A stretch of 64,000 nt of DNA from a virus (taxonomy: Duplodnaviria; Heunggongvirae; Uroviricota; Caudoviricetes; Schitoviridae). Position 1 is the first letter of the stretch; each line of letters starts with the position of its first letter. Below the pieces are notes generated by a model. The model was given only the letters and a program-made list of their open reading frames with translations. It ran no database searches and was not told the origin of the DNA. The translations under genes were made by a program, and so were the position numbers. The stretch is taken from IMG/VR virus record IMGVR_UViG_3300028490_000001, positions 14,677-78,676 of that record; one strand, written 5' to 3'. Shown here piece after piece: positions 1 to 61,364 of the stretch.

Positions 1-1822
1 TTCCTATTGCCTGGTTAAATGACAACATTATTCCTGATGAGCTAGCATCCGCTTTTGTTCTGTAGACAATACTAAATGAGCCGTTATCTTTTCTTATGTT
101 TGATATTGCTTCAATAATCATAAGCTTGTTCCAAGGATTACCCTTGAACTTTATAGGGTGTGTACCTATTTTACCTTTTGCAAGTGCACGCATGAACCCC
201 ATACGCTTTTTGGCATCAACAGTAACTCCTTCTCCAAATAAAGCATTGTATCTTGATATAAGGTAGTCAATATCAGGGTCAAAACCTTCTTCTGTTATCT
301 GTCTCTCACTTAGTCCTTTTTCTCCACCTGTCTCATCATTTATTCCATGAATGATTTGATTCTTTAGATTTTTCCCTAGAGCGGTAGTAGTATCTATAAC
401 TACTGGTTTACCGTTTACCATGTTTCTAGCAAAGTGCTTATCCATTTGCTCGTTTAATACTGTAGATAGATATTCTAAACGAGTGGTTCTGTATAATTGA
501 GTTTCATGTGTAAATGCTTTTGGAGAACCATCTTCATTTATAAAATCATCTATATTCATTATGAGTTGAACCAGAGGGTTCTGTTTTGATATTGATTGCC
601 CTATTGAGCTCTTAAAGTTATCGGATGTAGTCTTTGGGCTCAACGCACCAAATATTTCATTCGCCTCTATATCAGAGAGACCCATCTTTGAATATAAGTT
701 TTTTAGTGTAGCCTCTGCACTGGTAGTACTTATGTCTCCAAGTTCATCTAGTATTTCTCTCATGTACTTGAGCATTGCTATTGAATTTTCGTTGAGGTAT
801 GACTCTTTCTCCTGTAGCTCCACCATTAGTGACATATTGTCTGCAGTGATGTTGTCTCCAGAGTTCGTAAAGCCAAGGTCTTTTACTTTCGGCTTACTGT
901 ATTCCTTGTTTACCTCAGTATGGTCAGTAAGTGGCAGCTTTACATTGGACGGAACCACTAATCTATTTACTGCAGATATACCATTTAATGTTTCAGATAA
1001 TGTATCAAAAACACTAATACTCTTTAGGTCTCCAGCTCTAAGGGCTTCAGAGATTGCAGCTCTAGATTTTTCATCCTTCTTTTGAGAGCCCTCAAGGAAT
1101 GCGTCTGTCACTATAGATATAGTCTTGAACCCGCCTAATGTTAATTCACCTTGCTTACTATAGTCTTTTAAATTAGACTTGTAGTATCCAGGGTTTATAA
1201 TATGGTCGTTCTCTGAGACTCTAACTAGTCCAGCATCGACAAGTCTCTGTATTGCATCTTCACCGAGTTTTTGGTATTTTGCATTATTCATTACTGCATC
1301 ATGGTGGTATTTGAAGCCTAAGTGCTCTGCAATTACTTTACCTATTGTCTGAGCAACTGGTGCAAAGTTTACCTTTCTTGACATGTCATCATTGAACAAC
1401 ACTCTTGATGCAGTTTCACCAGTGAGTCCTATGTTCTCCTGTATGTTTGCTTCATTTGTTATTGCCGCAATAATTTCATGCAGTGCAACACTTTTCTGCA
1501 GTATATCATTTCCTGCTTCTGCCTTTTCAAGGTCTGTTTTTGCTTCAGGAACACTAGCTACGATGAGGTTTGATTCTTTCGAGTTATCGACATTCTTTGA
1601 TATTTTTTTCCATGTTTCAGGATTAAACTTCTCTATAAACTTTAGTTTTGCTTCTGCTCCGACTGAATTACCAGCCTTATGAAGAAGGTTATATATGTCA
1701 GCATGTAATACTCTTGTTATGTCAAATGACATAGGTTTTTTTCTACCTTTGCCATTGTACGTTATAGGTCTTACTTTATCTCTCTTAGCATCAAAAGCAA
1801 TTGGTTTTAAACAGTTTCCCAT
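1..1822 (-). CDS. Partial (N-terminal >=607 aa) large protein with T7-like single-subunit RNA polymerase signatures; ORF starts at ATG 1822..1820 and runs off the window; possibly a virion-associated RNAP
   Basis: Manual minus-strand translation is open from 1822 to position 1 (not in the ORF track because it is open-ended). It contains 'LAKGKIGTHP' (cf. T7 RNAP 'LAKGKPIGKEG') followed about 50 aa later by 'DASSSGIMLSF' (cf. T7 motif A 'DGSCSGIQHFS'). Confidence 0.4.
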   Translation of the reverse strand, partial: MGNCLKPIAFDAKRDKVRPITYNGKGRKKPMSFDITRVLHADIYNLLHKAGNSVGAEAKLKFIEKFNPETWKKISKNVDNSKESNLIVASVPEAKTDLEKAEAGNDILQKSVALHEIIAAITNEANIQENIGLTGETASRVLFNDDMSRKVNFAPVAQTIGKVIAEHLGFKYHHDAVMNNAKYQKLGEDAIQRLVDAGLVRVSENDHIINPGYYKSNLKDYSKQGELTLGGFKTISIVTDAFLEGSQKKDEKSRAAISEALRAGDLKSISVFDTLSETLNGISAVNRLVVPSNVKLPLTDHTEVNKEYSKPKVKDLGFTNSGDNITADNMSLMVELQEKESYLNENSIAMLKYMREILDELGDISTTSAEATLKNLYSKMGLSDIEANEIFGALSPKTTSDNFKSSIGQSISKQNPLVQLIMNIDDFINEDGSPKAFTHETQLYRTTRLEYLSTVLNEQMDKHFARNMVNGKPVVIDTTTALGKNLKNQIIHGINDETGGEKGLSERQITEEGFDPDIDYLISRYNALFGEGVTVDAKKRMGFMRALAKGKIGTHPIKFKGNPWNKLMIIEAISNIRKDNGSFSIVYRTKADASSSGIMLSFNQAIG

Positions 1823-1825
1823 TAA

Positions 1826-4800
1826 TTATCCTTCACATTTCTTATTCATAAAGTCTTCTAGAGACATTTCTTCTCCTAGAGTGTCATCTAGGGACTGAGT
1901 TTGCATACTCTCTTTTATTTCATTAACATTATAGCTCATTTCTTGCCCAAGAAAGCTAGGTTCAGCATTTTCTTTCGTGTCTTCTGTTGCCTCTTCCGTG
2001 GTATCAGTGGGTACATCATCGTTACTTTCAGTCGTATCATCCTCTACACTACTTGTTTCGATATTATCTTCGACTGGATTATTCTTTTCAAAATCTTCAG
2101 CAATAGGCAATTCAGTAATTAGAGATGCCCTTTGCTTAAGAAGGTCTGCTGTGTTAGAACCATCCACCTTTAGTTCTTCTTCAATCTTTGAAATCATACT
2201 TTTTATTTCTACAGAACTTTTGAAGAATGAATGTCCATCAAGGGCGTTTTCTATGTCACTTGATGAGTCTTTAGAAAATGAGTCTAGCCTCTTATTAAAT
2301 ACTTTAGCTTGGTTCTTTGTTATAAAATTTCTGTCAACAAGTGCCTGTATAGCTTCTCTTATTGAACCAACCTCTTCTGATGACGCTATATTCCCTTGTG
2401 ATATCAGCCTTGTAATCTTTTTGTAGTTATTGGCTTTTTCTTTTGGGTCCATAGAAAAAGATGCATCACTTACAACTTCGCTATCTGTTGCATACGGATT
2501 AATAGTAAGCTTACTTCTTGCCGAAGAAGCTCTATCGTTAATCACACTATTTGCTATCTTCTTGAGTCTTGATTTCTTAGGAAGCTCCTGAATCATCTTC
2601 TTTAGTGATGCATTAGAATACTTAGTCATCTTGTTGTATGCTTCTCTTGAGCTCTCTTTCCCTTTGCCGAATAGTGTCTTGATTAGCTCTCCAGGAACTT
2701 CTTTGAGCGTAGGATTAGCAGTAGCGTCATCCTTCATTGAATTGTCTGACATATCAACGCTGTCGTTGCTTCTAGAGCCAGAAATCCCTGCCTTTTTCCC
2801 GTCTGTTCTAGCCTTGTCAAAATATGATATATTTGAAGATACTATTTCAATATTTCTTTCATTTTCTTCATTTATTGAAGATACCCATCCTAGGGCACCA
2901 TTTTTTATACTGTCAAAGTTTTTACTCATAACATCGTTCGTAACCATAGTCGATAGGTTTTTAGACATAGAGGCTTTCCCTATAATAGATACAATTACTT
3001 CCATATCCTCACTTGAATCAATCGCTGCTCCTATGTCAGCACTCGTAGCATCATCCTCTAATCCAAGCTCTGCAATAAGTAAGTCAGATACTTTTTTTCT
3101 TTTTGACGCATTCTTGATTGCTTTGTTCTTTGCCTCCATGAATACTTCACTGCCCTCAACTGACTCTTTTGATAACAGGGCTTTCTTCCCTATTTCTATC
3201 TGTGCATTCAACTCTTCGTTGCCAGTTGCTTCTAATTGTTCCATATTCTCTGCATTCTGGATAGCTTCAGTGGTTCTAACTATTGACTCTCTATTGCCCT
3301 CGTTACCTTTGAGCTCTTGTGTGAATGCATCCCTAGCTAGTTTATAGTCATTATCAGACAGATTTTGTATCTCTCTAGTGTTTAGATTTTTTGCTTTATT
3401 TTCTTTCGCAGATATTCTTGCATTGTTCAATGCTTTTCCAGCTGCTGGAACAGCCTGTACTGAGGCAGAGACTGCAGAACCTGCTACTGTCATACCACCA
3501 CCAGCGAATCCACCAGTAATACCTTGTCTGAGGTTCTTCTCATTCATTGTCTTTAGTGCACGTTTCGCATTCTCTTTACTGAAGATGTCAGATATTGAAC
3601 CGTCTGTGTCCCTTTTCATTGTGTTGAATTGCTCTTCCATTGCCTCTGATGTTTCCTGAATAGTCTCACCAATCTGTGAACCAGCTACAGCTGCAACTCC
3701 AGAAGCAACCTTAGCCTTTATGCCCTTTCCTGTAAAAGTTTTACCTATCTTGTTTAATCCAAATAGCGTAAGTACTTTCTCTATGTATATAGTAGGAACA
3801 ATTGTGCCTATAGCTTGTGCAACTTCTGCATTAGTCATATCTCTATTGTTATTCTTTTTGAATGCATCCATCCGGTCATCTAGGCGTGTACCTGTAGTAA
3901 TCGCTATACCACCTGGAATGATAAGCTGCAACATCTCTCCTGCAGAGTCACCAATTGATTCCGGCACATTTTCAACTGTCTTCTTAACATATGTTAAGTA
4001 GTCTTCGTTGTCCCATGCCTCATTCGCTTCGTGCTCAGTCTTCTGCTTTCTGTCTCTAGCGAGCTTGTTTACACCAGCATATATGTCTGACGCTGTACTG
4101 CTGTCTGCAAATTCTTTTGAGGTCATCCCTGTATCTAGAAATTCAGAACCCGCTCTATCCTTATATGCTTTATCTGTTAGAGCTTTATTTTTAGCCATAT
4201 CCTCTTTGCTTTTTCCAAACAATGGACCAAGAGTGTCTTCTTGCTTGTTGTATAACCACTTCATAAAAGTATCTGTGCTGTCATCAAAATTTGCAAGTGT
4301 TTTGACTGCAGAGCCCTTTGCCATATCTACAACTTCTGCGAACTTACCTTCATATCCTTCTTTATCATGGTACTCTGAGAAGTCCAAATATTGCTCTTCT
4401 TCAGATTCATCTCTAATTTTCGATGGTGGTGTACCTTTCCACCCAAGAGCCTTGGCTCTTTCATCTTCGCTCATTGATTCCATTATTTTCTGCTCTAATA
4501 TACTCAGACCAGTATTATCTTTTTTTATATTTTCCGTTTTGGCATTAAACAGTGGCATACTATTTCCGTCATAGTATTCAGACGCACCACTACCTGTACC
4601 ACGTCTGAAGGCTGCAGATTCGCTTGAACCGTCATCGAAAGACTTTCTTGCCCCTATATTTCCTTCATTACCATGGAATATCTTCTCAGCATTTGCCGCA
4701 ACACCTATCGGTAGTTCCCAATTTGCATATAAGTCCTGCTCATCTATTCCAGTTTTCCCTGAAGCCCATCCATATTGCTTCTCTAAACCATTATTGTCAG

Positions 4801-44439: not shown

Positions 44440-44646
44440 ATGATTTGCTATAAAGATACAACATTTTGCTCGGAAGATAAATGTGGAAACATAGATTGTA
44501 ATAGAAATGTTACAGCTGATGTAGTTGCTGCTTCACAAGCATGGTGGAATAAAGGTGTTGATATTTCAGAATGGACACCTGCTCCTATAGCAGTACAAGA
44601 TTTAAAAGATACATTTGAGTGCCCAGGATATGTCATGCGTCCATAG
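44440..44646 (+). CDS. Small Cys-rich protein (68 aa)
   Basis: ORF track. Preceded by an unlisted 37-aa Cys/His-rich ORF (44329..44442). Confidence 0.25.
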   Translation: MICYKDTTFCSEDKCGNIDCNRNVTADVVAASQAWWNKGVDISEWTPAPIAVQDLKDTFECPGYVMRP

Positions 44647-44649
44647 AGT

Positions 44650-45300
44650 TATCATTGGATAATTTTATTGGCCGTAGGGCATGTCTGCGGACAAGAAAAT
44701 ACTAACCGTAAAACGAGAGATTATGCACGGTCAATAATCACACCTCTCACCATGGGTCCACAACATCCAACTGGACGTTGATGGACCCCCGTATTATGTG
44801 CCATTCGTCTAAATGTAGGACCTCCGCCTTAATAGCCGGATAATGCTGGTTAGAGTCCAGCATGGTAACACCGTAAAACGGGCAGGTTGTATCCACGGAA
44901 GAAATACCGACTACCTGTCAGTATAAACGGTTTTCCTGAGATGTCCCGTAGACTGCTTTAATGTCGAAAGAAATCATCCGTGATTGGTCTCCACACGTAA
45001 AAGTGGGACCGCCAAAAGAAAACTATTCCACAGAACCATCTCTATGTAGATGTTTGTATGGAGTCGTTGGGGTCAGACTCGTCGCAAAAATATCCTAGGC
45101 AGCATGCCTTAATCAACAAAACCGGGTTTACCGGATGAAGTTTGTTATTTAAATAATGTATTCTAAATGTCACCAATGTAGAAGAAAAACTCACGCAGTG
45201 ACCTGGAGCATGGCTTGGAACTCGCCTTCTTTTCAACATCCAGTTAAAGACGATTAGTAAAGACAGCGGTAGATTTTCTTGATTGACAGATTCTTACAAC
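44650..45300. ncRNA. About 650-nt GC-enriched, ORF-free, highly structured region immediately upstream of the tRNA cluster; candidate large structured non-coding RNA
   Basis: No ORF over 60 aa on either strand. Many local helices, e.g. GGGTCCA...TGGACCC, GCTGG...CCAGC and GGTCTCC...GGACC. Sits next to tRNA genes. Confidence 0.3.
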
Positions 45301-45363
45301 CATAGCTAGGAAAGCGTCATGGAGTACCGTCTCAGCTGGAAAGAAGCAGAGACAACTGATTAT

Positions 45364-45440
45364 GGACGCGAAAGCTTAAATGGATATAAAGCTACTCACT
45401 GAGAGTGAGGAGATATTGGGTTCGATTCCCTGCAAGTCCA
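45364..45440 (+). tRNA. tRNA-like gene (imperfect acceptor and T stems; possible anticodon loop cUGAGag) ending in an encoded CCA
   Basis: T-arm 'TTGGG-TTCGATT-CCCTG', 3' end 'CAAGTCC-A-CCA', D-arm GCTT/AAGC; needs tRNAscan-SE. Confidence 0.3.
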
Positions 45441-45450
45441 CAAATATTAT

Positions 45451-45525
45451 GTCATGTTAGCTCAGTTTGGTAGAGCACTCCCACTGATAAGGGAGAGGTC
45501 AATGGTTCAAATCCATTATGTGACA
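45451..45525 (+). tRNA. tRNA (75 nt) with a canonical cloverleaf but an apparent 8-nt anticodon loop (ACUGAUAA); identity unresolved (GAU/UGA-type)
   Basis: Acceptor GTCATGT/ATGTGAC, D-arm GCTC-AGTTTGGTA-GAGC, anticodon stem CTCCC/GGGAG, T-arm AATGG-TTCAAAT-CCATT. Confidence 0.55.
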
Positions 45526-45677
45526 CACAAATAGTCATGAAGGTAACAGACCATGCAAGGGTGTCGTGAGCATCCTAGAAAAATTCATTGCTGGAATGAT
45601 AACCAAAAGCAAGAGTGTTTTGAAATAGATTCACAAACTTATCAGAGAGTCTACTGTTGGACTCTCGAACTATATAT

Positions 45678-45752
45678 GTCGATGTAAGTTTCAGTCCGGT
45701 AGAACTGGGGGCCTTTTGCCCCTGTGCGTTGGTTCAAATCCAATCATTGTCT
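45678..45752 (+). tRNA. tRNA-like gene (T-arm GTTGG-TTCAAAT-CCAAT; anticodon stem GGGGC/GCCCC with a U-rich loop, possibly Lys-UUU)
   Basis: Partial cloverleaf identified by eye with one acceptor mismatch; needs tRNAscan-SE. Confidence 0.35.
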
Positions 45753-46096
45753 ATCTTGGGTGCTGAGGATAAATGCATCTGGTCTAATGGATGTCGACCT
45801 AAAATATCCTTACGAGCAAAGGAACATGCTTTCAATAAACCTCACAATCGGAAAATACTACTTTAGTAGAACGCGAAAGCGTCATCGGTGTAACCCCGGA
45901 TATTTTTCTCATGTAGAGGACAGCTGCATATCTTTACAAACCATACTGTTTTACCTAGTACCAAAGGTAAGAAAAATCCTATAGTTTAGGTGAACCACAC
46001 AAGAGGGATTGATACCGTGGGTGGCAATGCGTCTACTCCTTTCATTTTAAAAGCACTCAGTGCGGTTCAAACAATATATACAAAAAAGGAAATAAT

Positions 46097-46294
46097 ATGT
46101 TCACACTAATAAGTGTAAATAACAAAGATTCGGTAGGATACAGATTTATCGGAGTCGATGCATCATTCTATTTTGATGGAGAAGGATTTACATTCTCATC
46201 AATCACTAGCAGTAGAGTTAAATCTATTTCAATGGATGAAGATATTATGACCGTAATAACAAAAAATACAGAATATAAATTCAGAAAGCACTAG
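46097..46294 (+). CDS. Hypothetical protein (65 aa)
   Basis: ORF track; RBS 'AAGGAAA'. Confidence 0.3.
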   Translation: MFTLISVNNKDSVGYRFIGVDASFYFDGEGFTFSSITSSRVKSISMDEDIMTVITKNTEYKFRKH

Positions 46295-47538: not shown

Positions 47539-47695
47539 AGGGTTTACCCTAATTGAACTCATATTTGTAGTGATTATTGTCTTTATACTTGCATCAATTG
47601 CAGTACCAAAGATAATGTCAGACAATAAAAATAATGTGCAGCAGAGCCAACAACATAAACAAACAAAACAAATCGAAGGAACGACATGGGAATGA
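47519..47695 (+). CDS. Type IV pilin/pseudopilin-like small protein (58 aa) with a class III (prepilin) signal
   Basis: 'MMKSLSRGFTLIELIFVVIIVFILASIAVP': the G-F-T-L-I-E-L prepilin-peptidase cleavage/methylation motif followed by a hydrophobic helix. Confidence 0.5.
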   Translation: MMKSLSRGFTLIELIFVVIIVFILASIAVPKIMSDNKNNVQQSQQHKQTKQIEGTTWE

Positions 47696-48567
47696 AAAAA
47701 ACATTAATCACAATTGGATTACTTGCAGCAATGCTACTTACTACAGGATGTAATCATAAGGTAGTAGGACAGGGAGAAAAAGGGAAGATTCTTGATAGAG
47801 GAGGATTTCAACCGGAAATCTATCCACCATCAAGAGTAAACACTGGATGGCATGGAGACCTGGTTCTTATTGAAACAGTAACTCACACAGTAAATGAAAC
47901 AATTACTGTTCGTATGAAAGATGACATGAACCTTGTTGTTCAAGTTAGATTTCAACTGAGAATGGGAGAAAAAGAAACTTCACTTAATGCTGTATTTAAT
48001 GACATTAAACCTGAATCAGGAAACCTTATTACTCTTGGTCAAGTCTACAATGTATATGGAAAAATGCTTGTAAACAAAATCACAAGAGAGGTACTCTCAA
48101 AATATAATATTGGTGATGTGAATGATAACTTCAATCATATTTCAGCAGATATTTACGAGAAAACACTTAAAGGTTTCAAGCCTACTCCACTAATCATTAC
48201 AGATGTAGCACTAGGAAAACTGGATTATCCAGAAATCATAGATAATGCTATCATGGGTGCTGCAAAACGTGAGCTTGAAATTAAACAAGCTGAAGCAGAT
48301 GTACAAGTTAGACTTACTGAACTAAAAGGTAAAGAGAAAGTAGCAGAAGGTGAGTACAGAATCAAGATGCAAGAAGCAAAACGTATCAAAGATTACAATG
48401 CTGCTATTGCAGAGGGAATCACACCTGAACTATTGGAACTTAGAAAACTAGAAGTACAGCAAGAGCTCGTACAAGCAATTGGAAAAGGTGATACTACAAC
48501 CATCTTCGTCCCATACTCTGCTCTCGGAACCACAGGTTTACAGAACAGAGTAATGCTCACAAAGTAG
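47686..48567 (+). CDS. SPFH (band-7/HflKC/prohibitin-like) domain lipoprotein (293 aa)
   Basis: Lipobox 'LLTTGC' after the signal. SPFH-like core with an Ala/Glu-rich coiled coil and a C-terminal 'LELRKLEVQQELVQAIGKGDTTTIFVP' resembling HflK/HflC/stomatin C-termini. Confidence 0.5.
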   Translation: MGMKKTLITIGLLAAMLLTTGCNHKVVGQGEKGKILDRGGFQPEIYPPSRVNTGWHGDLVLIETVTHTVNETITVRMKDDMNLVVQVRFQLRMGEKETSLNAVFNDIKPESGNLITLGQVYNVYGKMLVNKITREVLSKYNIGDVNDNFNHISADIYEKTLKGFKPTPLIITDVALGKLDYPEIIDNAIMGAAKRELEIKQAEADVQVRLTELKGKEKVAEGEYRIKMQEAKRIKDYNAAIAEGITPELLELRKLEVQQELVQAIGKGDTTTIFVPYSALGTTGLQNRVMLTK

Positions 48568-48569
48568 GA

Positions 48570-49005
48570 AAACTGTGGGCCCCTAAAAGCTGGGGTTGAA
48601 CCGGATAAGTGTGCAATAAAAGCCTATCTATGAAATGCATACCGACCCACAGACTAAACAGTTCTTGAATAGCTACCCTTACCTCATGGGGGTAGGCAAT
48701 GCGTAAACGTATTTTACGTGTCATTGACAAATAGAACTGTTTGTAGTAAACCTGAAGAGGTTTGCCCCTAGAGCCAACAAGAACGGTATATATAGGTAGC
48801 TCCTGTATGAGCTTATGCTCACTTCAGTACTGTTGGTTCTCTGGGCAAACTTATTCTAATGTTTTACCCTGCACTGGTCAGATTGACCATAAACTCCCAG
48901 ATTCTATTTCCGGGGGAGTGTAGTTATTATCAAGCTTATTTTATTATCCCACATAAGCTTAGCACTATAGACTTTTAACACCTGTCAGTCCTAGACAATT
49001 TTTAG
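48570..49005. ncRNA. About 435-nt ORF-free structured region preceding the tRNA-like elements; candidate structured ncRNA or extended tRNA-precursor region
   Basis: Multiple helices, e.g. CTGTGGG...CCCACAG and CTACCC...GGGTAG. Confidence 0.25.
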
Positions 49006-49080
49006 AATGCTACGAGGGTTCGACCCCCTCTCTCGCCTCCATAAATATATGGCGAGATGGTAGAGTGGTTATACAGCATT
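49006..49080 (+). ncRNA. Circularly permuted tRNA-like element: [anticodon-stem 3' strand, T-arm, acceptor 3' strand, CCA], 9-nt linker, [acceptor 5' strand, D-arm, anticodon-stem 5' strand]
   Basis: AATGC-tac-GAGGG-TTCGACC-CCCTC-TCTCGCC-t-CCA-taaatatat-GGCGAGA-tg-GTA-gagtggtta-TAC-a-GCATT. Four of four helices are perfectly complementary: acceptor 7 bp, T 5 bp, D 3 bp, anticodon 5 bp. Confidence 0.35.
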
Positions 49081-49140
49081 CACAACTTATCTTAAAAAAG
49101 GGAACTAGACATAAAACCGGGTCGTGCAACAATTACAGAT

Positions 49141-49234
49141 ATTTCGAGGTTCGAGTCCTTGAGGGCCCACCATTACTACTATTAGTATTTGGGCCCTTGG
49201 CGGAATTGGTAGACGCACTGATTGTTTAAATCAG
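49141..49234 (+). ncRNA. Second permuted tRNA-like element: T-arm, acceptor 3' strand AGGGCCC-a-CCA, 18-nt linker, then acceptor 5' strand GGGCCCT with a class-II (Leu-like) D-arm and a complete anticodon stem-loop
   Basis: CGAGG-TTCGAGT-CCTTG-AGGGCCC-A-CCA...GGGCCCT-tg-GCG-gaattggtaga-CGC-a-CTGAT-tgtttaa-ATCAG. The acceptor is a perfect 7 bp. No T-arm lies downstream of the 5' half. Confidence 0.3.
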
Positions 49235-49320
49235 CCATCAAAACAAATTGATAGAGTCCACAAGAAGGAATAGCTAGTGGGCTCGCTTGAGTTTGTTATA
49301 AAAAATATAAAGGAGAAGAC

Positions 49321-49908
49321 ATGGCAGGAGAAAAGAGTACCCTAATTAAGGTTGGAGAAACAGTAAAATTAACTGGTGTATCATCAGACAGTAAATACTA
49401 TGGATGGGCACCACAATTAGTTGGCAATCCCTATATTGTAACAGCCATCGACTACTCTTCATATGACAAAAAATGGGTAGATGCAATACTGAGTCCAATA
49501 AATGATTCAGAAATATCACAGTTTGGAAGAACCATAACCGTAGGAAAGTGTCTTCTGGAAAAATTAACTACAGAACTTCAGGTGATACAAAACCTTGACA
49601 TAAACTTTTCAAGAAAAGAACGAAAAATTAAACAAATAAATACTTTATTTTCAAAATTTCTAGAAACAGGAAAAGTAGCTACACATATACTTGTGGAAGC
49701 AAATGACCAAGAAAGCTGGAAAGAATTACATGAGCAAGGATATGATGTATTGTGGCAAAATCTACAAAATGTTAGTCCAAAATGGACTAAAATACAATCA
49801 AATTTCCCATTTGACCCAAAGAATACACTTATTATATTTAAGCACAGCAGAGCAGATATGACAAACTTTTTAAGATTTAGAAAAGACTACATGGAAGGTG
49901 GATATTAA
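49321..49908 (+). CDS. Hypothetical protein (195 aa)
   Basis: ORF track; RBS 'AAGGAG'. Confidence 0.35.
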   Translation: MAGEKSTLIKVGETVKLTGVSSDSKYYGWAPQLVGNPYIVTAIDYSSYDKKWVDAILSPINDSEISQFGRTITVGKCLLEKLTTELQVIQNLDINFSRKERKIKQINTLFSKFLETGKVATHILVEANDQESWKELHEQGYDVLWQNLQNVSPKWTKIQSNFPFDPKNTLIIFKHSRADMTNFLRFRKDYMEGGY

Positions 49909-61115: not shown

Positions 61116-61364
61116 ATGATTACCGATAAGGAATTAGCACAAAGAATAAATTTTTACCGACATTCATATCACGAATTGTCAGCAATACATGGAGTCTCAC
61201 CATCTTATTCAGAGATGGTAATGTATGTTGCACTAATGCTAAAAGAAGACCCCATAGAACTCTCAATAAAATTACTAGAATTATCTCAAGAAGATAGAAA
61301 GCAGGAAAGATATGCGCAACACCTTGACGCTATCGGAGAAACAGTGGGACCGGTTCCTTTCTGA
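61116..61364 (+). CDS. Hypothetical protein (82 aa)
   Basis: ORF track. Confidence 0.3.
   Translation: MITDKELAQRINFYRHSYHELSAIHGVSPSYSEMVMYVALMLKEDPIELSIKLLELSQEDRKQERYAQHLDAIGETVGPVPF

Follow-up and report, generated by a model that had tools for sequence, protein, structure and literature searches.

To our knowledge, permuted tRNA mimics were previously known in bacteria and phages only from the Ro60 system. The tRNA genes of phages tend to be interpreted solely as spare parts, either for codon usage or against nucleases. A bacterial precedent for one step considered below exists in the two-piece tmRNA of alpha- and betaproteobacteria and some cyanobacteria, whose CCA end is freed by excision of the loop separating it from the acceptor 5' strand. 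Bacterial Y RNAs of the YrlA type (Rfam RF02553) have been described as 'circularly permuted tRNA mimics' and were reported adjoining Ro60 genes in 22 phages (PMC4201824; bioRxiv 10.1101/312249). In M. smegmatis, YrlA (7-bp acceptor stem) is cut by RNase P, its ends are nibbled and CCA is added (PMC4201824). Circularly permuted tRNA genes are found in Cyanidioschyzon merolae, some green algae and one archaeon (Soma 2007, Maruyama 2010 and Chan 2011, as cited in 10.1101/312249); no splicing endonuclease is known in bacteria (10.1101/312249). Finally, an engineered, closed-acceptor circularly permuted tRNA-Leu folds and mimics a nicked tRNA (Chen & Wolin 2023, PMC10159003); it binds the RtcR sensor and is circularised by RtcB, and cells read it as damaged tRNA (PMC10159003).

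We examined a window (the whole stretch of DNA analyzed, 64,000 nucleotides) from an N4-like phage genome of about 78.5 kb. A sequence-only reading had proposed two tRNA-like elements there, each with a CCA-bearing 3' half upstream of its cognate 5' half, and had considered both true permuted tRNA genes, as in algae and archaea, and tRNA-mimicking structural RNAs; the latter fit the evidence best. Our main conclusion, to which we give a probability of roughly 55%, is that positions 48925-49300 of the window (hereafter the block) form a conserved structured non-coding RNA locus of an N4-like phage clade, made of two tRNA-derived modules in permuted gene order, E1 and E2, that are mimics. The parts of the block are as follows.

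48932-48960, + strand: hairpin at the 5' edge of the block, AAGCTTA / TAAGCTT with a 15-nt loop
48962-48995, + strand: 5' strand of the long, irregular basal stem enclosing E1; 93% identity across lineages
48996-49004, + strand: 5' side of the E1 internal loop, at the anticodon-loop position, CAATTTTTA
49005-49010, + strand: E1 'anticodon-stem' 3' strand GAATGC, pairing with 49076-49081
49014-49030, + strand: E1 T-arm GAGGG-TTCGACC-CCCTC, with a canonical T-loop; three pairs covary
49031-49037, + strand: E1 acceptor 3' strand TCTCGCC, 7/7 Watson-Crick with 49051-49057 in all 7 lineages
49038-49041, + strand: E1 discriminator U73 and CCA; CCA invariant in all 7 lineages
49042-49050, + strand: E1 linker TAAATATAT, 9 nt, the loop closing the acceptor stem; sequence and length variable
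49051-49081, + strand: E1 5' part, with GGCGAGA, U8 G9, D-arm GTA-GAGTGGTTA-TAC, A26 and GCATTC
49082-49089, + strand: 3' side of the E1 internal loop, ACAACTTA; motif NNAACTYA partly conserved
49090-49127, + strand: 3' strand of the basal stem; sequence nearly invariant, 88% identity
49128-49144, + strand: joiner between E1 and E2; 72% identity
49145-49161, + strand: E2 T-arm CGAGG-TTCGAGT-CCTTG; stem covaries
49162-49172, + strand: E2 acceptor 3' strand AGGGCCC and A73-CCA; pairs with 49191-49197
49173-49190, + strand: E2 linker, 18 nt; 14-25 nt by lineage, 42% identity
49191-49216, + strand: E2 5' part, with acceptor GGGCCCT, U8 G9 and Leu-type D-arm GCG-GAATTGGTAGA-CGC
49218-49234, + strand: E2 anticodon arm, stem CTGAT/ATCAG, loop UGUUUAA
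49235-49254, + strand: E2 variable-arm region ATCAA-AACAAA-TTGAT; hairpin invariant, arm at 49237-49252
49255-49283, + strand: conserved hairpin HP3, with the invariant loop motif AAGGAATAG
49284-49300, + strand: conserved tail CGCTTGAGTTTGTTATA; 84% identity, preceding the ribosome-binding site of the next gene

Both modules are circularly permuted cloverleaves on the + strand (E1 at 49005-49081, E2 at 49145-49252), in which the 3' part with its CCA comes first and the matching 5' part follows. When un-permuted in silico, each is called a tRNA by ARAGORN, the body being of Cys type in E1 and of Leu type, class II, in E2, and on paper both predicted folds are tRNA cloverleaves with intact elbow nucleotides. 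In native order, ARAGORN called nothing at either element, Rfam gave no tRNA match there even at E<=10, and no contiguous cloverleaf (ARAGORN or RF00005) was called at any of the five loci described below. The earlier statement that neither element can be read as an ordinary tRNA is thus upheld, as the only candidate upstream 5' strands, GGGGGAG at 48912 for E1 and GGGTCGT at 49119 for E2, are mismatched and do not covary. A group I intron, a permuted intron-exon arrangement and flanking self-cleaving ribozymes were also considered and set aside, with no Rfam match at E<=10. As a test against chance, a strict detector, which asked for a T-stem of 5 bp carrying a T[TG]C[AG]A loop, acceptor strands pairing 7/7 on either side of a linker of 1-45 nt, and a D-arm with GG in it, found two matches in the window versus a total of two in 100 dinucleotide shuffles of it (0.02 per shuffle), and in 361 kb of other fetched loci it found nothing except homologous elements. 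A relaxed detector did not discriminate, with 257 matches versus 279 in shuffles.

In E1, the layout predicted at 49006-49080 was confirmed part by part, 9-nt linker included: the acceptor 5' strand GGCGAGA occupies 49051-49057, the D-arm has 3 bp and GCATT lies at 49076-49080. An extra pair, G49005-C49081, extends the stem to 6 bp in total, and a variable TAC separates 49010 from the T-arm. The 17-nt stretch from U8 through the D-arm is 100% conserved, and ordinary tRNA-Cys(GCA) genes of phages have an identical D-arm. Four to five acceptor pairs covary; the 'anticodon' stem shows compensatory changes at three pairs, with 100% of cells paired. This stem opens into an internal loop of 9 x 8 nt followed by the long irregular stem, and an anticodon loop is absent. 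The 5' strand of the internal loop is poorly conserved (54% identity) and has no constant anticodon-like triplet. RNAalifold pairs 48962-48995 with 49090-49127 (22 pairs), and in the most divergent homologue one pair of this basal stem has a compensatory change, five have changed on one side and still pair, and two are broken. A sigma70-like match, TAGACA-16-AACAAT, lies within 49090-49127; it is a consensus match only.

E2 was said to have the same arrangement as E1. Its CCA-bearing 3' part does stand upstream of the cognate 5' part, but the break is elsewhere: in E2 the anticodon stem-loop (49218-49234) is whole and is followed by a variable arm (49237-49252), which places its permutation point between the variable arm and the T-arm. 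Four acceptor pairs covary and ACCA is invariant; three pairs of the anticodon stem covary, and pair 2 of the T-stem is G-U, G-C, C-G or U-A depending on the lineage. The acceptor and D-arm are also found in an alphaproteobacterial tRNA-Leu(UAA). The anticodon loop differs in every lineage (homologue loops ATTCTAA, TTTTTGGAA and TTTTAGG), giving the anticodons UUU (with G33, in the window copy), UCU, UUG and UUA, all with U34. HP3 sits where a normal tRNA would carry its T-arm; six of its seven pairs covary, and in contig L051 the stem is entirely replaced. Near the 3' end, an alternative helix of the variable-arm region (49242-49251 x 49288-49297) has one compensatory pair, while at the other edge the stem of the 48932-48960 hairpin is invariant in five homologues (92% identity across lineages).

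Using the invariant D-arm as a search pattern together with the neighbouring DUF7873 gene, we found the block in four other metagenomic N4-like contigs, L041 and L044 from the same sample, and L049 and L051 from other samples. In the resulting five-sequence alignment, compensatory changes on both sides occur in 24 of 60 pairs and 98.3% of cells are paired. None of 500 shuffles reached the observed covariation, slid controls gave at most 5, and RNAalifold independently recovered the same helices. The placement of each 3' part upstream of its cognate 5' part is therefore backed by covariation, and helices kept paired by evolution indicate working tRNA look-alikes rather than debris. Conservation varies by region: N73-CCA is 100% identical and the D-arms 90-100%, the stems are only 45-70% identical yet still paired, and the linkers are 42-66% identical. 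The block DNA is 80-84% identical, versus only 23-28% for the protein encoded downstream. The block is non-coding and read from the + strand, since its indels are not multiples of three and its G-U pairs occur only in the + reading. An independent ENA contig is identical to the window over the region; this, with the presence of the block in the four other contigs and in cultured phages, rules out an assembly artefact.

The surroundings are less constant. The gene upstream of the block is either SPFH or DUF7873; the downstream gene (start codon at 49321 in the window) belongs to the same weakly conserved family in four of the five metagenomic loci and is unrelated in L051. The closest SPFH-neighbour relatives, with 85-87% identical neighbouring genes, lack the block, which must then be dispensable for this phage type as a whole. 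A blastn search of the block against INPHARED phages gave no match, searches of IMG/VR and JGI metagenomes with exact junction patterns returned only chance hairpins in coding DNA or terminators, and in the literature we found nothing on tRNA-like elements in N4-like phages.

Cultured Vibrio phages, 29 of them, nevertheless carry an E1-type module; it again lies downstream of DUF7873, and GenBank annotates it as small hypothetical CDSs. Phages D491, D497 and K479 belong to this group, and in OZ196387.1 the module occupies roughly 61190-61290 of the minus strand. Its acceptor, T, D and anticodon stems are kept through different sequences, and it carries the same T-arm as E1; N73, which is U in the window's clade, is G or A. 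The linker, 7-9 nt long in the window's clade, measures 25-26 nt and forms its own conserved hairpin, and a TGG or TTGG just 5' of G+1 can pair with the CCA. A tRNA-Lys(UUU) gene follows the module. The DUF7873 protein is only 46% identical between the two clades that share the E1 architecture.

Judged by these alignments, E1 and E2 are conserved tRNA mimics and not relics. They are probably not decoding tRNAs, because E1 has no conserved anticodon and stands on a long conserved stem, and the E2 loop varies with the lineage. We propose that they offer a tRNA-recognising factor the 'top half' of a tRNA, namely its elbow, acceptor helix and CCA, and that they probably act as decoys or scaffolds for a tRNA-binding protein of the host or the phage. 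By analogy with M. smegmatis YrlA, RNase P would most likely cleave 5' of G49051 and G49191, with 3' trimming to the CCA afterwards; the predicted products are tRNA mimics, nicked or in two pieces, whose CCA end is free. Pairing of the CCA with nucleotides 5' of G+1 is reported to hinder RNase P (PMC9433436), so that the Vibrio phage copies, with their TGG/TTGG-CCA pairing and linker hairpin, may stay closed. Pfam scans and precomputed lists revealed no RNA ligase, RtcB or Ro60 among the ORFs scanned. Three large ORFs (372, 530 and 603 aa) have no Pfam, PHROG or PDB match, which leaves room for a dedicated processing enzyme. Most simply, the modules would go back to a dimer of tandem tRNAs that kept its inner halves.

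It is conceivable, although we regard it as rather unlikely, that N4-like phages make such 'pre-nicked' or two-piece tRNAs as baits or inhibitors for host immunity that targets tRNAs, or for the sensing of tRNA damage. RNase P would open the CCA-linker-acceptor junction to give tRNA-shaped complexes whose CCA is free, and the break would lie in the anticodon loop for E1 and before the T-arm for E2. Candidate targets would be anticodon nucleases of the PrrC or PARIS type, or RtcR/RtcB; the fast-changing E2 anticodon loop, always with U34, might then track the specificity of host nucleases, and the neighbouring tRNA-Lys(UUU) gene of the Vibrio phages might be a companion replacement tRNA.

The broader reading as conserved mimics has to be weighed against three alternatives, each of which we consider improbable. 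The first is that E1 and E2 are genuine permuted or split tRNA genes giving translation-active tRNAs. E1 would be processed at its ends and ligated by way of a circular intermediate, as happens in Cyanidioschyzon; E2, once cut by RNase P, would work as two pieces joined through the acceptor stem, in the manner of two-piece tmRNA. In both elements the tRNA body is indeed complete, the acceptor stem has 7 bp and the encoded N73-CCA never varies. E2 moreover combines an intact anticodon arm with A73 and a Leu-type D-arm, features that LeuRS recognises independently of the anticodon; in L041 and L044 its loop is canonical (AUUCUAA, with U33 and A37). The layout is also that of a functional two-piece RNA, as the Rfam permuted-tmRNA models RF04321 and RF01850 match locally and exactly on the junction, if weakly and far below their gathering thresholds (12.8 versus 47 bits and 25 versus 84 bits, respectively). 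Against this stands the permutation point of E1, which has neither a constant anticodon nor U33: the flanking loop strands are 54-75% identical and their triplets lineage-specific. By eye, these flanks form the 9 x 8 nt internal loop and irregular long stem instead of a 3-4-3 bulge-helix-bulge (BHB) motif, Rfam gave no self-cleaving ribozyme match, and the ORFs scanned yielded neither an RNA ligase nor an RtcB family. In E2 the anticodon stem covaries while the loop drifts, with G33 in the window; an anticodon that varies by lineage on an unchanged Leu-type body would cause mistranslation if E2 were a decoder. The proposal of true permuted tRNA genes comparable to those of algae and archaea is, on these grounds, unsupported.

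A second alternative, to which we likewise give little credence, makes the elements YrlA-type Y RNAs, in which the E1 basal stem binds host Ro60 (Rsr) and the tRNA-like head tethers an effector such as PNPase. E1 shares the YrlA architecture, with a T-arm, a closed acceptor stem-loop and a D-arm inside a 5'/3' stem, YrlA-like RNAs are known in phages, and a dimeric-tRNA origin has already been proposed for YrlA (10.1101/312249; PMC4201824). The sequence-only statement that no permuted or split tRNA genes are known in bacteriophages has to be qualified to that extent. The basal-stem strands are also the most conserved part of the block (88-93%), as expected of a protein-binding site. The specific marks of the family are nonetheless missing. 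The Ro60-binding motif GNCGAAN0-1G does not occur on the + strand of 48568-49320, nor by eye in the aligned homologues. YrlA genes lie within about 4 kb of rsr and on its strand, and Pfam scans of large ORFs with precomputed Pfam lists for the rest revealed no TROVE/Ro60 gene among the ORFs scanned in the ~78.5-kb genome. Even at E<=10, RF02553 (gathering score 69 bits) matches neither of the two elements nor their Vibrio phage counterparts; its only matches (19-24 bits) fall on ordinary tRNA junctions elsewhere. Finally, an invariant CCA has no role in the closed YrlA model. Without these marks, E1 and E2 are not simply members of the YrlA family.

The third is a cis-acting mRNA element that recruits RNase P or other tRNA-processing enzymes to cut and stabilise a polycistronic transcript, or forms a structured 5' leader. 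Punctuation of transcripts by tRNA-like structures is an established principle (mascRNA, mitochondrial transcripts). The conserved block reaches the ribosome-binding site of the next gene, which is of one family in four of five metagenomic loci, and alternative pairings exist near the block's 3' end. This explanation nevertheless seems doubtful to us, because the downstream gene of L051 is unrelated, the upstream neighbour varies between SPFH and DUF7873, and the Vibrio phage module precedes a tRNA-Lys gene instead of that protein gene; an ordinary tRNA would, moreover, serve equally, leaving the permuted order unexplained. Least credible, and effectively refuted by covariation, is a non-functional relic, whether left from the inner junction of a tandem tRNA duplication that has decayed or produced incidentally by homing endonucleases in tRNA genes: the phage's own tRNA cluster does have encoded CCA and 5-10 nt AT-rich spacers resembling the E1 linker, elsewhere in the genome a tRNA-Arg-like gene is interrupted by an HNH endonuclease gene, and close relatives lack the block, but 24 compensatory pairs with 98% pairing across lineages, an E1 architecture kept between clades despite the divergence of DUF7873, and an invariant CCA beside freely drifting linkers all speak against decay, as do the many substitutions, which exclude recent copies of one sequence, and a tblastn search with 79 HNH homologues that found no HNH remnants adjoining the elements.

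As conserved mimics, E1 and E2 would represent a tRNA body rearranged so as to be unusable as an ordinary tRNA, in which every helix, the elbow and the CCA appear to be selected across divergent phages. This suggests that phages have a so far unrecognised class of non-coding RNA that works by mimicking tRNAs, independently of Ro60. Since the elements are missed by ARAGORN and Rfam and annotated as tiny hypothetical proteins, similar RNAs may be widely overlooked. The E1-type module of the 29 cultured Vibrio phages makes processing, opening by RNase P and the host partner directly testable.

Compared with known systems, E1 and E2 resemble the permuted tRNA genes of algae and archaea in that the 3' part lies upstream of its cognate 5' part with complementary acceptor strands and a short linker across the acceptor end, which needs opening by RNase P or RNase Z. 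Those genes, however, are matured into decoding tRNAs by way of a circular intermediate and a splicing endonuclease that depends on a BHB, whereas our elements have no BHB motif, no conserved anticodon can be rebuilt in E1, and that of E2 is not conserved. Two-piece tmRNA (RF04321, RF01850) has the same junction as the elements, running from the T-arm through the acceptor 3' strand, NCCA and a loop to the acceptor 5' strand; the tmRNA loop is AU-rich and about 10-30 nt long. The elements differ from it in having a true D-arm and neither tag reading frame nor pseudoknots; the G3-U70 alanine identity pair is absent, pair 3-70 being C-G, A-U or G-C, and ARAGORN, which detects permuted tmRNA, reported none. 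The engineered permuted tRNA-Leu shares with E1 a closed acceptor end and molecular ends in the anticodon region; it is artificial and needs ribozyme-made 5'-OH and 2',3'-cyclic phosphate ends, while in E1 the stem continues into the long basal helix.

The closest known kind is the YrlA bacterial Y RNAs. The phage elements differ from these in lacking a Ro60 motif, a Ro60 gene found in the phage and an Rfam model match, in their encoded and invariant N73-CCA, in the 3-bp Cys-type D-arm of E1, and in forming two tandem modules, of which E2 is permuted at a different point, keeps the whole anticodon arm and, without an enclosing stem, is only partly YrlA-like. The likenesses are extensive: E1 and YrlA show the same succession of stem strand, V, T-arm, loop-closed acceptor stem, D-arm and stem strand on a long stem of the 5' and 3' regions, the elbow nucleotides of tRNA persist in E1 and E2 as in YrlA, both kinds occur in phages, YrlA in bacteria as well, with a dimeric tRNA origin proposed, and M. 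smegmatis YrlA, for which opening by RNase P has been shown, has the same 7-bp acceptor stem as E1 and E2.

The permuted tRNA-like order proposed in the sequence-only reading was confirmed part by part at 49005-49081, in an element with a Cys-type body that we call E1:

49005, +: extra stem pair, G side
49006-49010, +: stem 3' strand, AATGC
49011-49013, +: variable TAC
49014-49030, +: T-arm, GAGGG-TTCGACC-CCCTC
49031-49037, +: acceptor 3' strand, TCTCGCC
49038-49041, +: discriminator T and CCA
49042-49050, +: linker, TAAATATAT
49051-49057, +: acceptor 5' strand, GGCGAGA
49058-49059, +: positions 8-9, TG
49060-49074, +: D-arm, GTA-GAGTGGTTA-TAC
49075, +: position 26, A
49076-49080, +: stem 5' strand, GCATT
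49081, +: extra stem pair, C side
48962-48995 with 49090-49127, +: long basal stem, continuing past the internal loop

The permutation point of E1 falls at the anticodon loop, which the element lacks: its stem of 6-7 bp leads into an internal loop with weakly conserved strands, from which neither a constant U33 nor an anticodon can be obtained. Both basal-stem strands are among the best-conserved parts of the block, the non-coding RNA locus (48925-49300) that holds E1 and a second element, E2, and this head on a long stem is the layout of a YrlA-type Y RNA. The discriminator, U73, matches tRNA-Cys, and over the 17 nt spanning U8 through the D-arm E1 is identical to ordinary tRNA-Cys(GCA) genes of other viral contigs. 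As for E2 (49145-49252), the CCA-linker-acceptor junction and the Leu-like D-arm initially described both stood; left unstated had been its continuation into an anticodon arm and a variable-arm hairpin. In order, its parts are:

T-arm, CGAGG-TTCGAGT-CCTTG
acceptor 3' strand, AGGGCCC, then A73 and CCA
linker, 18 nt, between CCA and the acceptor 5' strand
acceptor 5' strand, GGGCCCT, then TG
D-arm, GCG-GAATTGGTAGA-CGC, then A26
complete anticodon arm, CTGAT-TGTTTAA-ATCAG, then CC
variable-arm hairpin, ATCAA-AACAAA-TTGAT

The permutation point of E2 thus lies between variable arm and T-arm, as opposed to the anticodon loop in E1. Its acceptor stem, A73 and D-arm are also those of a bacterial tRNA-Leu(UAA), and its long variable arm is that of class-II tRNAs.

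That no ordinary tRNA reading exists was upheld, as ARAGORN in native order calls a single tRNA (45451-45526) anywhere in the window; Rfam, searched down to E<=10, matched no tRNA in the E1/E2 region. Placing the 5' part first makes ARAGORN call both E1 and E2 as tRNAs, and folding the native sequence to minimum free energy, a check suggested at the outset, gives back the permuted cloverleaf of E1. A strict detector, requiring a T-arm with canonical loop, 7/7 acceptor pairing across the linker and a GG-containing D-arm, found two matches in the window and two in 100 dinucleotide shuffles.

Searches with the block sequence and with exact junction patterns returned nothing real, and the block is absent from the closest relatives, found by their SPFH gene. 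An IMG/VR search with the E1 D-arm yielded two metagenomic contigs from the same sample (L041, L044), both with the whole block, and following the neighboring DUF7873 gene led to two more loci in other samples (L049, L051). Block DNA in the four is 80-84% identical to the window; the protein encoded downstream reaches only 23-28% identity, and flanking genes differ. In L051 (547-1350 and 4267-5117), a reverse-transcriptase (RVT_1) gene lies 1.6 kb upstream of DUF7873 and the SPFH gene is in two ORFs of 147 and 128 aa.

Eleven helices were followed in the five-sequence alignment (E1 AC, T, acceptor and D; E2 T, acceptor, D, AC and V; the hairpin HP3; and the upstream hairpin). Standard pairs occupy 98.3% of cells, four of the five unpaired cells trace to one misaligned 9-nt loop, and 24 of 60 pairs changed on both sides. 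None of 500 column shuffles matched these pairing and double-change values; sliding partners by 1-3 columns lowered pairing to 32-46% and double changes to at most 5. RNAalifold, given no input structure, finds the same helices. We regard this covariation among homologues as decisive, and the indel pattern and G-U pairs show that the block is read on the + strand as a non-coding RNA. Identity across lineages is distributed as follows:

N73-CCA of E1 and E2: 100%
D-arms: 90-100%
T-loops: 86-93%
helix strands, still paired: 43-83%
linkers: 42-66%, with lengths of 7-9 and 14-25 nt
E2 anticodon loop: 52%

The E2 anticodon stem is retained through compensatory changes while its loop differs among four lineages (UGUUUAA, AUUCUAA, UUUUUGGAA and UUUUAGG, labeled by ARAGORN Lys or Leu, Arg, Gln and ochre suppressor). 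The 'anticodon' (window 49223-49229 and homologues) reads UUU (with G33), UCU, UUG and UUA by lineage, and position 34 is always U. Lys, Arg and Gln tRNAs have three of these four triplets as anticodons; their U34 is modified, and anticodon nucleases typically target them. HP3 (49255-49283) occupies the position of a normal tRNA's T-arm; six of its seven stem pairs covary, and none of the five homologues departs from its loop motif AAGGAATAG. RNAalifold favors a helix of 49242-49251 with 49288-49297, one pair of which is double-changed in L051 (C-G to U-A), over the E2 variable-arm hairpin; two alternative conformations are possible just 5' of the next gene's ribosome-binding site. Just 5' of the block, an imperfect long hairpin (48754-48856; 26-nt arms, 81% complementary), of which L049 has a shorter version with compensating differences, could be the upstream gene's terminator or part of the RNA.

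Homologues of DUF7873 (46% identity) occur in Vibrio phages of the N4-like type, about 78 kb in size, from seawater and oysters. In phage D491 an E1-type module directly follows this gene, with T-arm GAGGG-TTCAAAT-CCTTC, acceptor 3' strand CTCATCC, G73 and CCA, a linker of 25 nt that contains a hairpin, acceptor 5' strand GGATGAG, D-arm GCA-GAGCGGTTA-TGC and closing stem GGAAC/GTTTC. The module is present, in three sequence variants, in 29 cultured Vibrio phages; the family as currently sampled comprises five metagenomic loci and 29 closely related isolates, or about seven lineages for E1 and four for E2. The acceptor stem is 7/7 Watson-Crick in all seven lineages though five of its seven pairs vary; T, D and closing stems covary too, CCA is constant and the discriminator varies (U, G, A). 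An ordinary tRNA-Lys(UUU) gene takes E2's place after the Vibrio phage module. Short 'hypothetical protein' CDSs annotated over the module in GenBank (D491, L052 6042-6137; D497, L053 413-508; K479, L054 397-552) are probably mis-annotated non-coding RNA. Upstream of DUF7873 in D491, non-coding DNA holds two more orphan T-arm-like motifs, GAGGTTCGATTCCTC (L052 4230-4246 and 4615-4631), which are not called as tRNAs and may be further unconventional tRNA-like elements.

The window is from a metagenomic phage and codes for a terminase and a portal protein (44% identity to the portal of N4-like, Schitoviridae-type phages); several large ORFs of the phage have no detectable homology. It matches ENA contig ERZ27262695:k141_733695 with zero mismatches across the compared parts. 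Beyond the window this contig encodes a 2340-aa protein, which by size and position alone would be an N4-type virion RNA polymerase, and then returns to the window's first gene; the unit genome is therefore about 78.5 kb, a typical N4-like size. The 89.5-kb contig has a terminal overlap of about 11 kb (window 1-3915 versus contig ends). The block sits in a 750-nt non-coding gap, and a second large non-coding island of 1.45 kb (44646-46097), parts of which are kept in L041 and L049, contains odd tRNA-like genes:

47686-48567, +: SPFH-domain gene, upstream of the gap
49321-49908, +: 195-aa ORF, downstream of the gap
44798-44870: tRNA-like gene, Rfam 31.6 bits, loop CUUAAUA
45418-45430: orphan T-arm-like motif, GGGTTCGATTCCC
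45451-45526: tRNA-like gene, Rfam 56.5 bits, 8-nt anticodon loop ACUGAUAA
45680-45749: tRNA-like gene, Rfam 23.5 bits, below threshold

About 6.4 kb past the window end in this genome, a tRNA-Arg(CCU)-like gene (L036 9919-10438), with two U-U mismatches in its acceptor stem, is split after position 37/38 by about 430 nt containing a 126-aa HNH endonuclease ORF; Rfam shows no sign of a group I intron there. In an unrelated phage contig (L037, ~2925-3430), a tRNA-Lys(CUU)-like gene carries at the equivalent site an HNH gene of 65% identity; either homing has repeatedly hit the anticodon region of tRNA genes, or a type of tRNA intron has gone unrecognised.

The phage's canonical tRNA cluster, just outside the window (Gln, Phe, Asn, Ser, Ile, Met, Met), has encoded CCA and AT-rich spacers of 5-10 nt, and the elements' junction of CCA, short AT-rich linker and next 5' end therefore looks like the interior of two identical tRNA genes in tandem. 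Given the drifting E2 loops, the lack of an E1 anticodon and the conserved top half, we hold with high confidence that E1 and E2 are selected tRNA-shaped RNAs rather than relics, and with fair confidence that they are not ordinary decoders; changing loops on an unchanged Leu-type body would be incoherent for a decoder. What is conserved is the 'top half' of a tRNA (elbow, 12-bp acceptor/T stack, NCCA), on which RNase P, the CCA-adding enzyme, EF-Tu and numerous further tRNA-binding proteins recognise their substrate. The 7-bp acceptor helix, invariant NCCA, unconstrained linker and, in the window's clade, U(-1) of E1 are hallmarks of bacterial RNase P substrates. A 7-bp acceptor stem occurs in a single YrlA, that of Mycobacterium smegmatis, which RNase P cleaves in vitro; in vivo this RNA is cut, nibbled and given CCA (PMC4201824). 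By analogy, RNase P would cleave 5' of G49051 and G49191, trimming to CCA would follow, and E1 would become a nicked tRNA mimic and E2 a two-piece one, each with its CCA free. An engineered RNA built to exactly the E1 design acts like a tRNA with a nick: the damage sensor RtcR binds it and RtcB seals it (PMC10159003), which makes a decoy or sensor-directed role conceivable, though speculative. Against uniform opening by RNase P, Vibrio phage linkers have a conserved hairpin and their last bases are able to pair with CCA, a kind of pairing reported to impede the enzyme (PMC9433436).

Three known families come close. YrlA (Rfam RF02553) shares the architecture of E1, but the block lacks the Ro60 motif, no Ro60 gene was found among the scanned ORFs of the phage genome, nearby ones included, and the YrlA Rfam model matches neither E1/E2 nor the Vibrio phage copies. 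Algal and archaeal permuted tRNA genes have the same gene order, whereas the elements have no BHB motif and no restorable conserved anticodon. Two-piece tmRNA has an identical junction (with weak Rfam matches), but the elements are without G3-U70, tag and pseudoknots. The elements hence lie outside all three families, yet they would work like a YrlA-type or permuted tRNA mimic.
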